28,424 bases of DNA from an uncultured Gammaproteobacteria bacterium (GTDB lineage: Bacteria; Patescibacteriota; Microgenomatia; Daviesbacterales; UBA10151), in NCBI GenBank assembly GCA_964560075.1, contig CAZLKE010000007.1, positions 474 to 28,897 of the forward strand. The letters are read 5' to 3'. Numbering within the stretch: the first letter of the stretch is position 1; the number at the start of each line of letters is the position of its first letter. The notes under the pieces were generated by a model, which had not been told where the DNA came from, did not search any database, and worked only from the letters and a program-made list of their open reading frames with translations. Of the stretch, positions 3,017 to 26,948 are shown one piece after another. The position numbers were made by a program, and so were the translations under genes.

Positions 3017-3045
3017 TCCGCAGTCCGATGTACATCGGACGAGGA
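3017..3045. repeat. solitary GC-rich palindromic unit
   Basis: TCCGCA-GTCCGATGTACATCGGAC-GAGGA contains a perfect 18-bp palindrome (3023-3040). It shares the TCCGC(T)AGTCC-N9/10-GGAC(G)AG frame with the unit at 5101-5130. Confidence 0.7.
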
Positions 3046-4607: not shown

Positions 4608-4931
4608 TCATGCAGCTTTTTTTAGTTCTGAAAGTATCTTTTTATAGTATCCACCAATTTGATCTACCTCAATCTTTCCCGCAGAAGCCAGCGCAACTGC
4701 ATTATTCATAGCATTACACATCAGCATATAACGTGATGGTGCAGGTTCTGTTGCAGAATTGCCTCTTGCTCGAACAGTTGAAGTAACAACTTCGTTTGTC
4801 TTTTCAACGCAAAAACCGGTTCCATCCAATTTTTTATGTGAATACCAAACCTTTAGGTTTCCATTTTCATCTTTTCTTTCATTGCGGAAAAACCATATTT
4901 GGTGCTCTTCGCAAAAATGTTGCTGTACCAA
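4608..4931 (-). CDS. hypothetical protein (probable TTG start at 4931)
   Basis: ORF track gives 4608-4988. GGAGGT (4944-4939) lies 7 nt upstream of an in-frame TTG at 4931, giving M-VQQHFCEEHQIWFFRNE. Confidence 0.55.
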   Translation of the reverse strand: MVQQHFCEEHQIWFFRNERKDENGNLKVWYSHKKLDGTGFCVEKTNEVVTSTVRARGNSATEPAPSRYMLMCNAMNNAVALASAGKIEVDQIGGYYKKILSELKKAA

Positions 4932-5007
4932 ATCAATCACCTCCCAAATCCACACCGATATTCTATTCCAAACAAAACCCGAAATCAAGTCTAAATCCCT
5001 CTCAAGC

Positions 5008-5036
5008 TTGCCTCAGATACAAAACTCAAGTATAAT
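5008..5036 (+). promoter_or_regulatory. sigma70-type promoter upstream of the truncated tRNA-Lys 5' end
   Basis: TTGCCT (5008-5013), 17-nt spacer, TATAAT (5031-5036). Confidence 0.7.
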
Positions 5037-5070
5037 TTACAGGAAGTTTTCATCATTTGGGCCGGTAACT

Positions 5071-5130
5071 CCCGCCGTCAAGTAAAACATGACAGGCGGA
5101 TCCGCTAGTCCTGTTACACTGGACAGCGGG
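5071..5130. repeat. pair of 30-nt hairpin units in inverted orientation (REP/BIME-like)
   Basis: Unit 1 CCCGCCGTCAAGTAAAACATGACAGGCGGA. Unit 2 TCCGCTAGTCCTGTTACACTGGACAGCGGG. Each folds on itself; the reverse complement of unit 2 matches unit 1 at 23/30; symmetry centre GGA|TCC at 5100/5101. Confidence 0.8.
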
Positions 5131-5148
5131 CAGCGGTATAATAAGCTG

Positions 5149-5391
5149 ATGAAGTTTTATTATACATACGTACTAAAAAGTATAAAGGATCAAAAGCTAT
5201 ATATTGGTTCTACTGGTGATATTAAGGAAAGATTTAAAGCACATAATCAAGGAGAGGTGAAGTCAACTAAAAACAGAAGACCATTTAACCTAATTTATTT
5301 TGAAGCATGCCAAGATAAAAAGCAGGCAGAAAAAAGAGAAAAATATTTTAAAACAGGTTATGGAAGAAAATTTTTGAGAGATAGAATATAA
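5149..5391 (+). CDS. small GIY-YIG nuclease (SLX1/UPF0213-like), 80 aa
   Basis: YTYVL...LYIGST...R...HN.G...ST..RRP...YFE...A..RE. ATG at 5149 lies 6 nt after TATAAT (5137-5142). The stop ends 1 nt before tRNA-Lys. Confidence 0.9.
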   Translation: MKFYYTYVLKSIKDQKLYIGSTGDIKERFKAHNQGEVKSTKNRRPFNLIYFEACQDKKQAEKREKYFKTGYGRKFLRDRI

Positions 5392-5392
5392 T

Positions 5393-5467
5393 GGGCCGGT
5401 AGCTCAGTGGTAGAGCAGGAGACTTTTAATCTCTTGGTCCAGGGTTCGAATCCCTGTCGGCTCACCA
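5393..5467 (+). tRNA. tRNA-Lys (anticodon TTT)
   Basis: Cloverleaf GGGCCGG-TA-GCTC/GAGC-GGAGA CTTTTAA TCTCT-CAGGG TTCGAAT CCCTG-TCGGCTC-A-CCA. Confidence 0.96.
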
Positions 5468-5510
5468 AAAAATTGACCATACTACTAAAACCTGTCACAA
5501 TAAATACAAG

Positions 5511-6287
5511 ATGCAAAAGGGGTTTGCTCTCCCGTCTTTCATTTTAAAAATACTAATTGGTATCGGAGTTTTGATCCTGATATTCGGAGGAGCATCGCTT
5601 TTCTCTATCTTTTCCAACCAAAATGTTCCTCCCCCACAGATTACGGCAAATTTCGTCAACTTAGATAAAGTGGAAAAGATCTCCAGGTTTAGAAGCTGTA
5701 CCGGACATGTTGTCGTACCCCAAAACGAAAAAGAAAGCAAAAGAAATATGAAGCATTATTTGTGGGAAAAGAAAGAAAACCGTGGAGCAGATAAAGTGGT
5801 AGAGATCTATGCTCCTTTCGATGGGTATATTACATTGATTTTTTCACTAAATGATAATGAACAGGAATTATGGATTTCTCCTCGGCGCATGTTTGCCAAT
5901 CTCCCACCAGTTGGGATGTGGAGTTTTAGTGCTGAGCATATTAAGGTTAAAGACGGGCTAAAAACTGGGGATAGAGTTAAGGCTGGTGAGTTGGTTGGTT
6001 TTACGGGATTTCTGGATGATTATTACTCATTTGATGCGATCTATGGCAAGATTGGGCTACCACCTAAGAAAATTGATAACTGGTTATCACCGTTTGCAGA
6101 TTTGGATTCTGTATTCAATCATATGAGTGACGAAGTTTTTGCGCAGTTTCAACAAAAAGGAGTTGTTTCAAGAAAGCAAATGATAATTAGTAAAGAAGAA
6201 AGAGATCAAAATCCTTGTGATTACCGTGGTGAAGGACCTGAGCTTATGGAAGTTAATCTTGATAATAGTTGGGTAGAGTTACATTAA
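5511..6287 (+). CDS. membrane-anchored/secreted hypothetical protein, weakly M23/LytM-like
   Basis: N-terminus MQKGF followed by a hydrophobic helix. APFDG and VKAGELVG resemble M23-fold motifs. Promoter TTGACC-17-CACAAT upstream. Confidence 0.6.
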   Translation: MQKGFALPSFILKILIGIGVLILIFGGASLFSIFSNQNVPPPQITANFVNLDKVEKISRFRSCTGHVVVPQNEKESKRNMKHYLWEKKENRGADKVVEIYAPFDGYITLIFSLNDNEQELWISPRRMFANLPPVGMWSFSAEHIKVKDGLKTGDRVKAGELVGFTGFLDDYYSFDAIYGKIGLPPKKIDNWLSPFADLDSVFNHMSDEVFAQFQQKGVVSRKQMIISKEERDQNPCDYRGEGPELMEVNLDNSWVELH

Positions 6288-6317
6288 GGGGTTCCAATCA
6301 CGGACAGCTGGCTCACT

Positions 6318-8272: not shown

Positions 8273-9277
8273 ATGTCTAAAAAGATCCTTGTCACAGGCG
8301 CTGGGGGATATATCGGGTCAGTCACTACTTACCTCCTACTTCAAAAAGGCTACCAGATCATTGCAATAGATAACTTCTCAACCGGGTTTGAGGGCCCGCT
8401 TAAGTTGCTTCAAGAGAAGTTTGGTAAAGAAAAATTACATTATCAAAAATTAGACCTTAAAGACGATCTCAAAGAGTTTTCTGACAAGCAAAAAGACATA
8501 GAAGCTGTTGTCCATTTTGCAGCTTCCCTTTCTGTTAACGAATCAATGGAAGATCCTGCTAAATATTTTTCCAATAATGTCTCTGGAACCCAAAATCTTC
8601 TTAGAAACTTACTTGAAAATGATATTAAAAATATCATCTTTTCTTCTACTTGTGCAACGTACGGTGAGGCGGAGTATGTACCAATCAATGAAAAACATCC
8701 AACAAACCCAACTAATCCTTATGGGGAATCAAAAAGAATAATAGAACAGATGATTGAGTGGTATGGAAAACTTAAAGGATTAAACTACGTAGTTTTAAGA
8801 TATTTCAATGTTTGCGGAGCAACCGATGACGGCCTTATCGGAGATTCTAAAAAACCATCAGTTCATTTAATGCAAAACACTGTCCGGGGAGCACTAGGGC
8901 TAGAACCTTTTTATTTAACTTGTCCAGAGGTCGATACTCCAGATAAAAGCCCAATACGAGACTACGTGAATGTGGTTGATTTAGCTGGTGCGCATGTTAA
9001 AGCATTAGAGTATCTATTAAATGGAGGCAATAGCGAAATTATAAATGTCGGAACAGGAGAAGGAAATTCGGTTCTAGAAATAGTCAGAAAAGTCGAAGAA
9101 ATAACCGGTAAAAATTTAAATGCCAAACAAGGTCCAGCCCGTCAGGGTGAATATGCCAAAATGATCGCTTCAACTAAGAAAGCTAAAGAAATCTTAGGCT
9201 GGGAACCAACTCATTCTTTGGAAGATTCTGTTAATTCCTTGGTTAAATGGTACAAAAATCATCCGGCCGGTTGGTAG
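8273..9277 (+). CDS. galE: UDP-glucose 4-epimerase
   Basis: TGAGGYIG, HFAA, FSSTCATYG, YGESK (YxxxK), LRYFN, RDYVNVVDLA. ATG at 8273 follows TG-T-TAGAAT; the ORF-track start at 8255 overlaps the promoter. Confidence 0.92.
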   Translation: MSKKILVTGAGGYIGSVTTYLLLQKGYQIIAIDNFSTGFEGPLKLLQEKFGKEKLHYQKLDLKDDLKEFSDKQKDIEAVVHFAASLSVNESMEDPAKYFSNNVSGTQNLLRNLLENDIKNIIFSSTCATYGEAEYVPINEKHPTNPTNPYGESKRIIEQMIEWYGKLKGLNYVVLRYFNVCGATDDGLIGDSKKPSVHLMQNTVRGALGLEPFYLTCPEVDTPDKSPIRDYVNVVDLAGAHVKALEYLLNGGNSEIINVGTGEGNSVLEIVRKVEEITGKNLNAKQGPARQGEYAKMIASTKKAKEILGWEPTHSLEDSVNSLVKWYKNHPAGW

Positions 9278-13751: not shown

Positions 13752-13870
13752 GTTTTTTGTCCGGCTAATGGACAATCTCTAATTATTGAGATCGGTAATG
13801 CTTCAGGAGGAATCGATTATCTATTTAACAGGGTTAAGTATCATTTGGATCCTTGGGGAAAGGTAACAAG

Positions 13871-13944
13871 CGACCCCAACGGGAGTCGAACCCGTGATTT
13901 CAGGGATGAAAGCCCTGCGTCCTAGGCCACTAGACGATGGGGTC
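13871..13944 (-). tRNA. tRNA-Glu (anticodon TTC), CCA not encoded
   Basis: GACCCCA-TC-GTCTAGTGGCCTAGGAC-G-CAGGG CTTTCAT CCCTG-AAATC-ACGGG TTCGACT CCCGT-TGGGGTC-G. Confidence 0.95.
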
Positions 13945-14069
13945 AATATTAAGCTTTTGATGTTTATTAAGCTTCTCGACACCTTTGCTTTCTGAAGTCG
14001 CTCTGCGACTTAAGGCCACAATTCTCTTTTTCGGATGACGCATCCTCAAAAGTATGCCGATGGGGTCAA
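13935..14069 (-). repeat. direct duplication of the tRNA-Glu 5' end around a hairpin-rich spacer
   Basis: CGATGGGGTCAA occurs at 13935-13946 and 14058-14069 (12/12, 123 nt apart). The spacer holds triloop hairpins AAGTCGC-TCT-GCGACTT (13995-14011) and GGATG-ACG-CATCC (14033-14045). Confidence 0.75.
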
Positions 14070-25373: not shown

Positions 25374-25447
25374 GGGGCCGTAGTGAAGAGGCCTATCACG
25401 TCTCCCTGTCACGGAGAAGAACGCCGGTTCGAATCCGGTCGGTCCCG
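25374..25447 (+). tRNA. tRNA-Asp (anticodon GTC); 3' end reads G-CCT rather than G-CCA
   Basis: GGGGCCG-TA-GTGA/TCAC-G-TCTCC CTGTCAC GGAGA-AGAAC-GCCGG TTCGAAT CCGGT-CGGTCCC-G. Confidence 0.94.
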
Positions 25448-25489
25448 CCTTCGTCTCGCTGAAGCTCGACTACGGCGGGTAAAACCCGC
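25444..25489. repeat. palindromic element overlapping the tRNA-Asp 3' end
   Basis: CCCGCC-TTC-GTC-N12-GAC-TAC-GGCGGG followed by GCGGGT-AAA-ACCCGC (25475-25489). Confidence 0.65.
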
Positions 25490-25718
25490 AAGTAGTTCGA
25501 GCGAAAGCGGAATTCCTCTCTGTTTTGGTACAATATACCCCAGATGTATTATGTTTATTTTCTTCTCTTAGGGAACAACACAATTTAGTAGCACCCTAGT
25601 AATTTGTGCCAAAAGTATCAATTGACATAGTTTGATCTATTGACAAGTTAACAAAAGTACGATAAAAATGGCTCAACATTTTTATCACTGCCCAAAATGA
25701 AAAAAAGGATTAACAGAA

Positions 25719-26772: not shown

Positions 26773-26842
26773 TTTATCACGTCTTTATTTGTATTTCAAA
26801 CACCAAATTTATGATCAGAAGGATGATATAATAACTACCGAC

Positions 26843-26862
26843 GCGGTGGTAGTTCAGCGGTA
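26843..26862 (+). pseudogene. orphan 20-nt tRNA 5' fragment (Gly-like)
   Basis: GCGGTGG-TA-GTTC-AGCGGTA matches the downstream tRNA-Gly 5' end at 14/20, including T8, A9, G10, A14, G15 and GG. It starts 10 nt after TG-A-TATAAT (26824-26832). Confidence 0.6.
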
Positions 26863-26874
26863 TCCGCCACATTT

Positions 26875-26948
26875 GCGGGATTAGTATAGTGGTAATACGT
26901 CACCTTCCCAAGGTGAAGTCGCCAGTCCGATTCTGGTATCCCGCTCCA
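26875..26948 (+). tRNA. tRNA-Gly (anticodon CCC)
   Basis: GCGGGAT-TA-GTAT/ATAC-G-TCACC TTCCCAA GGTGA-AGTC-GCCAG TCCGATT CTGGT-ATCCCGC-T-CCA. Confidence 0.93.

Follow-up and report, generated by a model that had tools for sequence, protein, structure and literature searches.

In the window analysed here, a stretch of 28,424 nucleotides (nt) of contig CAZLKE010000007.1 (assembly GCA_964560075.1; GTDB lineage Patescibacteriota, Microgenomatia, Daviesbacterales, UBA10151), a gene for a GIY-YIG protein of 80 amino acids stands directly before an intact tRNA-Lys(UUU) gene, behind two hairpins and a partial copy of the same tRNA. How did the gene of a predicted nuclease come to occupy a tRNA transcription unit without destroying the tRNA, and has it moved between such sites? 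The unit is a compact nuclease-plus-hairpin cassette on the 5′ side of a tRNA gene, and its phylum contains a large family of units arranged in this way. The best explanation as a whole was a nuclease/hairpin cassette that moved among tRNA genes by a homing-like route, to which we assigned a probability of roughly 65%. An integrase-free element with a history of movement had been proposed in an initial annotation of the window, and this proposal gained support from a copy at tRNA-Lys(CUU) whose open reading frame (ORF) was deleted, from sister cassettes at tRNA-Lys and tRNA-His, and from homologues before nine tRNA types. On the sequence comparisons given below, it is likely that the cassette family has moved among tRNA genes.

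Organization of the cassette at tRNA-Lys(UUU)

The cassette comprised ~334 base pairs (bp; window 5059–5392) within the 5′ part of the tRNA-Lys(UUU) transcription unit. Two inverted hairpins came next after the partial tRNA copy (pseudo-copy), and then a tRNA D-loop fragment, a −10 box, the GIY-YIG gene and the intact tRNA. The promoter, the hairpin pair, the TATAAT box, the 80-amino-acid ORF and the intact tRNA 1 nt after its stop had all been named in the initial annotation, and each was recovered at its place by promoter scan, repeat finder, Pfam or ARAGORN:

5008–5036, + strand: promoter-like site TTGCCT-17-TATAAT, 10/12 matches in the promoter scan
5059–5071, + strand: first part of the pseudo-tRNA, a copy of tRNA-Lys positions 1–13, 12/13 identical, with A for G at position 10
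5072–5099, + strand: hairpin 1, a GC-rich stem with one bulged A (repeat finder, folding)
5102–5129, + strand: hairpin 2, an inverted, diverged copy of hairpin 1 containing the −35-like GTTACA (repeat finder, folding, direct reading)
5113–5142, + strand: internal promoter-like site GTTACA-18-TATAAT (promoter scan), whose TATAAT at 5137–5142 ends 6 nt before the ATG
5131–5138, + strand: second part of the pseudo-tRNA, CAGCGGTA, tRNA positions 13–20, with the counterpart CAGTGGTA in the resident tRNA
5149–5391, + strand: single-domain GIY-YIG gene of 80 amino acids (Pfam PF01541), with a TAA stop 1 nt before the tRNA
5393–5467, + strand: intact tRNA-Lys(UUU) (ARAGORN; Rfam 71 bits), the sole gene found for this anticodon in the assembly

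The T at 5058 also matched tRNA position −1, so that the repeat finder returned a direct repeat of 5058–5071 and 5392–5405 with 13/14 identical positions at a spacing of 334. The pseudo-copy had earlier been read as a 10-nt match covering positions −1 to 9. The copy itself was real, but it runs to position 13 with position 10 as a point difference, and resumes after the hairpins. An insertion at the junction of acceptor stem and D-arm (9/10) was not upheld: the hairpins interrupt the copy at 13/14, where the D-loop begins, and further pseudo-tRNA follows behind them. This second part was identical to the resident tRNA-Lys(UUU) at 7/8 positions and to tRNA-Lys(CUU) at 8/8, and it overlapped the TATAAT box at 5137–5142.

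Compared with the inverted hairpin 1, hairpin 2 was identical at 23/30 positions, and its differences included two compensatory pair changes; the structure was therefore kept. When folded as single-stranded DNA, the double hairpin reached −21.1 kcal/mol (z = −4.5), and none of 200 shuffles was as good.

The −10 box of the 5008–5036 site ended 22 nt before the pseudo-tRNA +1. In the cassette-free tRNA-Lys(UUU) genes of relatives, −10-like boxes ended 6–36 nt before the tRNA +1, most of them at 6–23 nt. Because the 22-nt spacing fits these distances, the pseudo-copy probably marks the original tRNA start, and the 5008–5036 site was probably the original tRNA-Lys promoter. Transcription from the internal site at 5113–5142 would give a near-leaderless GIY-YIG mRNA, and this site could also drive the tRNA. 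A promoter of the cassette's own for the tRNA is plausible, with the −10 box kept in the copies at both tRNA-Lys(UUU) and tRNA-Lys(CUU) and no room for an upstream promoter at the latter. The intact tRNA at its 3′ end places the cassette in the pre-tRNA leader, as had been proposed.

A group I intron was not indicated. The tRNA-Lys(UUU) gene was uninterrupted (ARAGORN), and Rfam found no RNA family besides tRNA over 4900–5600 and thus no group I intron ribozyme core. No tyrosine or serine integrase was present inside or beside the cassette, and the duplicated part of the tRNA was the 5′ and not the 3′ part.

Copies and remnants in the same genome

The 1.03-Mb assembly contained 34 tRNAs according to ARAGORN. 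Of these, 4/34, namely Lys(UUU), Lys(CUU), Leu(CAA) and Glu(UUC), had their first 12 nt repeated with no more than one mismatch in the 500 nt upstream, vs. 3/1118 non-self tRNA/flank pairs.

The 60-nt double hairpin had one other genomic copy, located at C15:8405–8346 directly before tRNA-Lys(CUU). The stretch C15:8417–8332, which begins exactly at the pseudo-tRNA +1 and extends through the −10 box, was identical to the window at 84/86 positions. The ORF was deleted here, and ~30 nt of its 3′ end remained before the tRNA. The tRNA-Lys(UUU) and tRNA-Lys(CUU) genes were 85% identical and are old paralogues, present in most relatives too. The 84/86 identity of the module, set against 85% for the tRNAs, indicated that the hairpin module was common to both loci much more recently than the tRNAs diverged, and one of the two copies lost its gene later. 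The gene upstream of the C15 copy ended 3 nt before the pseudo-copy, and the internal −35/−10 pair may for this reason drive tRNA-Lys(CUU).

Two candidate markers of transfer between the Lys loci were discarded. Position 10 of the CUU pseudo-copy was A in this assembly and G in nine other public assemblies; the A shared with the window was thus rejected as a co-conversion marker, and is maybe a strain variant or repeat cross-talk. A D-loop base, which is C in both pseudo-copies but T in the resident tRNA-Lys(UUU), was ambiguous as to the direction of transfer, as the tRNA-Lys(UUU) of the same-genus relative also has C.

A second full cassette was located at tRNA-Leu(CAA) on contig C8. Behind its promoter came 18 nt that repeat the tRNA start without a difference, then, at the D-loop, a perfect 20-nt palindrome, 8 further tRNA-like nt and a GIY-YIG gene, which encodes a protein 44% identical to the window protein and whose ORF runs into the intact tRNA-Leu(CAA).

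Within the window, tRNA-Glu(UUC) (13870–13944, − strand) had an 11/12 copy of its own first 12 nt at 14056–14067 (− strand), 123 nt upstream and close behind a terminator-like hairpin. The stretch between the copy and the tRNA held two small hairpins but no ORF, and this leader looks like an ORF-less remnant of a similar cassette. A divergent, 20-nt tRNA-like 5′ fragment was also seen ~32 nt upstream of tRNA-Gly(CCC) (26875–26948), at ~26840–26875 (+ strand), as the initial annotation had pointed out too, and tRNA-Gly was counted with tRNA-Glu and tRNA-Asp among the sites of decayed cassettes in the window.

Two near-identical GIY-YIG genes, at C44:3346–3579 (− strand) and C25:10672–10899 (+ strand), carried the inverted repeats CGTCATTGCGAG...GAAGCAATCTAG on both sides, which resemble the NTS/SRM repeats of Ssn nucleases (NTS consensus, PMC11893778). 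The 20-nt palindrome CCTGCCTGCCGGCAGGCAGG occurred in seven genomic copies, some of them variants, in varied contexts on contigs C4, C8, C17, C24 (two copies), C25 and C74, and twice directly after an SRM-like repeat. It is the hairpin of the tRNA-Leu(CAA) cassette and of cassettes in three other genomes. An 18-bp palindrome at 3017–3045 was rejected as a solitary copy of hairpin 2; only the outer bases are common, and it belongs to another palindrome family that is also present inside the C44 repeat.

The genome was scored 98% complete, and among its 34 tRNAs ARAGORN found none for Asn or Val. Gaps in the assembly or insertions within these genes may account for this.

Sister cassettes and the wider family

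Two true relatives, among chance matches in GC-rich genomes, came from a BLAST search of 400 genomes of the class and a scan of 185,579 species genomes for the exact pattern of the hairpin-1 stem after CTC. The first, in genome G079 from another family, had the same layout at tRNA-Lys(UUU) and a protein 63% identical to that of the window; its pseudo-copy of positions 1–13 was identical to its own tRNA, which differs from the window tRNA at position 6. The second, in a Candidatus Collierbacteria genome, had the same layout at tRNA-His(GUG) and a protein 61.5% identical, and its pseudo-copy was identical to its own tRNA-His, including the extra G at −1. All three cassettes shared the hairpin-1 type, and in all three the hairpins started after tRNA position 13 (13/14).

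Homologues of the protein were found in 37/41 relatives. When the best locus per genome was considered, 24/32 had a same-strand tRNA within 300 nt (ARAGORN), and at three more the tRNA ran off a contig end or carried a group I intron. At locus L010 (G029:C31), the tRNA after the GIY-YIG stop had an apparent group I intron in its anticodon loop and was hence missed by ARAGORN.

The loci could be sorted by layout. The down layout comprises a pseudo-5′ copy, hairpin, ORF and tRNA. The up layout comprises a tRNA, a double-hairpin leader of 50–190 nt and an ORF, usually without a pseudo-copy. The C44 and C25 units represent an SRM-flanked layout. In an inverted-repeat-flanked layout, homologues without a tRNA lay between perfect 14–16-nt inverted repeats of the CACCCCGTTAGA ... 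TCTAACGGGGTG type. Loci L149, L150, L159, L164, L167, L168 and L169 had this layout, with 48–58% identity and the gene placed as if in the loop of a long hairpin.

Decayed cassettes of the up type were observed in the window genome. In the window itself, tRNA-Asp (25374–25449) was followed by a double-hairpin leader (25450–25588, + strand). The tRNA and leader were 82% identical (193 nt aligned) to the stretch preceding a GIY-YIG gene behind tRNA-Asp in relative G015, and a 14-codon stub starting MYYVYF after the leader marked a truncated cassette. At C13:8172–8273 (− strand), a GIY-YIG ORF 139 nt behind tRNA-Gln(CUG) (8412–8483, − strand) was internally shortened and ran into an N stretch.

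The initial annotation had called for a survey of small GIY-YIG genes for adjacent tRNAs, and this adjacency proved common. In a sample of 400 genomes of the phylum, 36 had a homologue at E ≤ 1e-22, members of the inverted-repeat-flanked layout among them, and 29 loci were fetched. The down layout was present at 15/29, where the start of the same-strand tRNA lay between −23 and +45 nt relative to the stop codon; by a rough estimate for a 1-Mb genome with ~45 tRNAs, chance would place such a start in this span for ~0.2% of genes. The 15 tRNAs were Val, Asn (four), Pro, Thr (two), Ser (three), Gln (two), Lys and Cys. At least nine different tRNA types had a close homologue immediately upstream.

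Few columns went into the maximum-likelihood tree of 57 proteins, and many of its forks were unresolved. The window protein fell in an all-down clade (support 89/89) mixing Asn, Pro, Lys, His, Val and Thr cassettes. The Val and Thr cassettes of one host family were sisters, and three Leu isoacceptor cassettes formed one clade (100/98). The C44/C25 SRM-flanked proteins formed a long-branch outgroup. Layout changed 13 times on the tree vs. 26.9 for shuffled labels, which showed that layout type clusters. The protein tree did not follow tRNA identity; with sister cassettes at different tRNAs, gene phylogeny did not track a fixed locus, in agreement with what had been expected of a mobile unit. 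In related cassettes, the pseudo-copy reached positions ~25–48 and resumed after the hairpin, and the hairpin positions varied from 7 to 23, mostly in the D-arm.

The GIY-YIG protein

The ORF at 5149–5391 matched Pfam PF01541 with E = 1.8e-18 and 67 bits (cut-off 22.6) as one domain over residues 4–73, and PDB 1zg2 (UPF0213) was matched with E = 3e-5; the gene was classed as UPF0213/Ssn-like. The catalytic set Y5, Y7, Y18, G20, R28, H32, E52 and E64 was present at 89–100% in 57 homologues, among which K68 was also conserved. The protein can be assigned to the GIY-YIG superfamily, and nuclease activity is predicted from these catalytic residues. Many public assemblies annotate a 100-amino-acid ORF starting at 5089, inside hairpin 1; the homologues favoured the 80-amino-acid start at 5149 over that call. 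Only weak, generic homing-endonuclease matches below the cut-offs were obtained from NCBIfam and PHROGs, and no relative of the protein was found in viral contigs.

Constraint on protein and hairpin

Genome G517 possessed two cassettes, at tRNA-Pro(CGG) and tRNA-Pro(GGG). The ratio of non-synonymous to synonymous substitution rates (dN/dS) of their ORFs was 0.065 at dS ~1.5, and the 46-nt hairpin, of which that genome has only these two copies, was identical at 45/46 positions. The low dN/dS and the near-identical hairpins indicated that protein and hairpin are both under strong purifying selection. The G517 pseudo-copies matched their own tRNA at all four positions where the two tRNAs differ, so that a pseudo-copy is either copied afresh from its local tRNA or held in step with it.

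Between the G079 and Collierbacteria cassettes, the synonymous sites of the ORF were saturated (proportion of synonymous differences, pS, 0.77), and the 62-nt double hairpin differed at six positions (~90% identical). These differences included a flipped loop and compensatory changes. Where synonymous sites were saturated, hairpin identity was ~90–98%. The 20-nt palindrome was present in 4/4 members of the Leu/Asn protein clade, in one of them with a compensatory change, and in 0/11 of the window's clade, whose hairpins had CCCGCC-type stems. The hairpin type thus follows the protein clade.

Occurrence in relatives

For the 24 relatives with a tRNA-Lys(UUU) gene, the 70 nt upstream of it were inspected, and ~19 showed no cassette sign there. 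In G022, a distant GIY-YIG cassette with a pseudo-copy to ~position 43 lay directly upstream, and it was the sole intact cassette among the 24. The other signs were a pseudo-copy with the tail of a deleted ORF in G038, two tandem ORF-less pseudo-copy/hairpin leaders in G018, a pseudo-copy with four different hairpins and no ORF in G019, and a hairpin only in G008. As to the signs by which homing genes are recognized, the distribution was patchy and the gene tree was at odds with locus or host; no presence/absence polymorphism was found at one locus among close relatives.

By synteny, no empty allele was reached: the flanking proteins had no matches near tRNA-Lys in 24–40 relatives. The left neighbour (126 amino acids) had no homologue at all in the relatives searched. 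The right neighbour (258 amino acids) had homologues in 4/25, and the three loci with upstream sequence had no tRNA nearby. In the same-genus genome the flanking genes were elsewhere or absent, and the next relatives were too distant for syntenic comparison.

A metagenome scan with the right neighbour returned six loci, the nearest 93% identical in nucleotides (vs. window 5458–6316; L074/L188, Ga0209542_10003332; GCA_001816385.1). Its surroundings were foreign, Fic, DUF5667 and AbiEii genes lying upstream and no tRNA within 20 kb, and it retained the last 10 nt of tRNA-Lys before the 258-amino-acid gene. The gene and a tRNA 3′ end seem to have been transferred jointly between genomes. As an empty allele the locus was rejected, since it holds only these last 10 nt in a foreign context.

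Probable movement of the cassette among tRNA genes

A possible course of events is as follows. The cassette would enter a tRNA gene by recombination that duplicates a 5′ tRNA segment, and the essential tRNA would be regenerated downstream. The duplication would arise at insertion or be maintained by conversion, and would allow an essential single-copy tRNA to survive. The former tRNA promoter, the cassette's own −10 box or both would drive transcription, and RNase P would release the tRNA from the transcript. The hairpin would be the nuclease's matching DNA site, and a break at the hairpin or the tRNA D-arm could start the copying of the cassette into related tRNA genes by homing-like gene conversion, with pseudo-copy and tRNA as short homology arms. 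The hairpin that splits the pseudo-copy may also guard the cassette from deletion between the direct repeats. Homing-like gene conversion started by the nuclease seems the most likely route. That the cassette's own predicted nuclease drives the movement is a tentative idea, which we would sooner doubt than accept. The most specific form of the proposal describes a class of integrase-free mobile elements of ~330 bp that copy into the tRNA D-arm region and regenerate the tRNA by 5′ duplication, with a nuclease that recognizes hairpin or D-arm DNA and starts transfer, and with the split pseudo-tRNA as both homology arm and deletion guard; in this full form it is speculative and rather unlikely.

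Several observations weigh against a cassette that moves by homing. The empty allele predicted by the initial annotation was not found within the species: all 23 public contigs encoding the exact downstream 258-amino-acid protein carry the cassette, and relatives lacked synteny. The 11 contigs fetched were 100% identical over 4991–5480, and the CUU locus was ORF-less in all 10 places examined. Four metagenome runs from groundwater and soil gave no joint skipping 5072–5405 in assembled short contigs, which are blind to rare variants, so this last point counts weakly. The cassette is fixed in the present population, without sign of ongoing movement. Among the homologues found, none exceeded ~65% amino acid identity, and there was thus no sign of recent transfer between genomes.

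Other objections concern the mechanism. The intact tRNA downstream keeps any tRNA-internal target, and simple homing offers no explanation of self-immunity. The left homology arm measures only 13–20 nt, and a separate DNA-binding domain is missing from the 80-amino-acid nuclease. If a cassette jumped between tRNAs whose acceptor stems differ, the result would be a chimeric tRNA unless the target's own 5′ end was duplicated. A target-site duplication of fixed length was rejected as a general rule, as pseudo-copies range from 13 to ~48 nt; so variable a length does not fit a fixed staggered cut. The long-term purifying selection, finally, would be expected of a gene useful to the host no less than of a selfish one.

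Alternative explanations

Here, three other explanations were considered. The first is that the gene was domesticated as an Ssn-type single-strand DNA nuclease, which might for example limit recombination or incoming DNA at its hairpin and be expressed from strong tRNA promoters; the pseudo-tRNAs would be relics of old rearrangements, and movement would have ended. A cassette fixed and invariant in the population, a dN/dS of 0.065 held over a long time in the G517 pair, a hairpin conserved like a protein site and homologues in 37/41 relatives would all suit such a gene, and SsnA has a host-level role in Neisseria transformation (PMC11893778). However, ORF-deleted and truncated copies at other tRNAs of the same genome are unexpected for a needed gene, and sister cassettes stand at different tRNAs. 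The gene is also patchy at any given tRNA (an intact cassette at tRNA-Lys(UUU) in 1/24 relatives), and the pseudo-copies, unlike relics, remain identical to the local tRNAs. A host-useful Ssn-like nuclease thus fits fixation and purifying selection but not the decay products or the patchiness, and we considered it unlikely.

In the second, what truly moves is the hairpin, a small palindromic element able to enter the loops of other hairpins such as the D-arm of a tRNA gene. The nuclease would then be a servant enzyme, as RAYT is for REP, and the pseudo-copy the only tolerated site. The seven copies of the tRNA-Leu cassette palindrome in varied contexts point this way, as do the varied hairpin positions (7 to 23, mostly D-arm) and the G019 pseudo-tRNA-Lys with four different hairpins and no ORF. 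The window double hairpin, on the other hand, has only two copies, both in cassettes, the G517 hairpin likewise, and hairpin and ORF travel together across tRNA-Lys and tRNA-His, which makes this explanation quite improbable.

The third, chance or an unrelated origin in the form of a decayed tandem tRNA duplication enclosing an unrelated small gene, or of a scar left by an integrase island, can appeal to tRNA genes as known rearrangement hot spots and to the 93% relative of the downstream gene that keeps the tRNA-Lys end in a foreign context, but it is already contradicted by the recurrence of the layout at 15/29 homologue loci and by the 4/34 self vs. 3/1118 non-self control, while integrase islands duplicate tRNA 3′ and not 5′ ends and no integrase is nearby, so its chance is very small.

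Comparison with known systems

By protein type and hairpin association, the nearest characterized system is the Ssn family, whose members, such as SsnA of Neisseria meningitidis, are GIY-YIG proteins of a single domain that cut single-stranded DNA at specific sites and have matching hairpin repeats (NTS/SRM; PMC11893778). In both, a small single-domain GIY-YIG gene adjoins a conserved hairpin whose type follows the protein clade, and the 80-amino-acid window protein is of Ssn size (a single domain of ~80–100 amino acids). The SRM/NTS flanks of Ssn (CGTCATT, palindrome and AATCYRG, often on both sides) were absent here, where the hairpins are confined to the 5′ side and do not fit the SRM consensus. 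The repeat of the window occurs twice in 1.03 Mb, whereas Ssn repeats are dispersed in hundreds per genome. Because SRM flanks and dispersed repeats were looked for and not found, the cassette was not filed as an Ssn member. The window gene is also lodged in a tRNA gene of which a 5′ segment is duplicated, and the Ssn paper does not mention tRNA (PMC11893778).

By setting, the nearest is SegB, a free-standing GIY-YIG homing endonuclease in the tRNA gene cluster of phage T4, which cuts the tRNA region of a related phage and is inherited by co-conversion (PMC2330249). Its gene likewise lies outside an intron and beside tRNA genes, but it has neither a pseudo-tRNA copy nor a hairpin module and belongs to a phage and not to a cellular genome. 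SegB is also a larger, multi-domain protein. By logic, the nearest are the mORFs of fungal mitochondria, endonuclease ORFs inserted in a gene that carry or regenerate the displaced gene end. There too an endonuclease ORF sits in an essential gene and a duplicated segment keeps the gene working; however, the targets are protein-coding and the 3′ end is duplicated in frame, whereas here a tRNA 5′ end is duplicated in a bacterial host and the pseudo-copy is split by hairpins.

In the same kind of bacteria, rRNA genes of the Candidate Phyla Radiation (CPR) contain GIY-YIG-encoding non-intron insertions, often at the tops or bases of stem-loops (PMC11270868). Those are also GIY-YIG genes in structural RNA genes, but they interrupt the rRNA and must be removed, whereas the window tRNA is kept intact by duplication; tRNA is mentioned 0 times in PMC11270868.

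The initial annotation had likened the hairpin pair to REP-RAYT recognition ends. REP/RAYT similarly combines a protein gene with palindromic hairpins and possibly acts on single-stranded DNA. However, RAYTs are HUH enzymes with covalent intermediates, and REPs occur in hundreds of copies and on both sides of the gene, whereas the window protein is of the hydrolytic GIY-YIG type. Because its hairpins lie on one side of the gene only and have just two genomic copies, both in cassettes, they are not REP-like dispersed ends and resemble instead a site matched to the protein; the nuclease/hairpin pairs of Ssn offer the closer analogue. Integrase islands also use a tRNA gene as landing site and restore the tRNA by partial duplication, but they duplicate the 3′ part by way of a tyrosine integrase, whereas in the window the 5′ part is duplicated and an integrase is present neither within nor near the cassette.

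Implications for the cassette family and its hosts

A full-text literature search found no description of GIY-YIG cassettes lodged in tRNA genes. What is new for the case of movement and a matching hairpin are the pair at the two tRNA-Lys genes, the Lys/His sisters and the measurements of hairpin constraint. If the movement is self-driven, these cassettes would be among the smallest autonomous mobile elements known, and they would represent a new, integrase-free use of tRNA genes as safe landing sites in which the 5′ end is duplicated. Ssn-type mini-nucleases would also gain a natural role, and the cassettes would offer a set of existing nuclease/hairpin pairs that differ in specificity.

For the annotation of ultra-small bacteria, the pseudo-tRNA fragments, hairpins and 80-amino-acid genes before tRNAs are easily mis-called, and the cassettes occupy the transcription units of single-copy essential tRNAs. 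The family is apparently a widespread and undescribed one, at least formerly mobile, which dwells in the tRNA genes of ultra-small bacteria without destroying the tRNAs.

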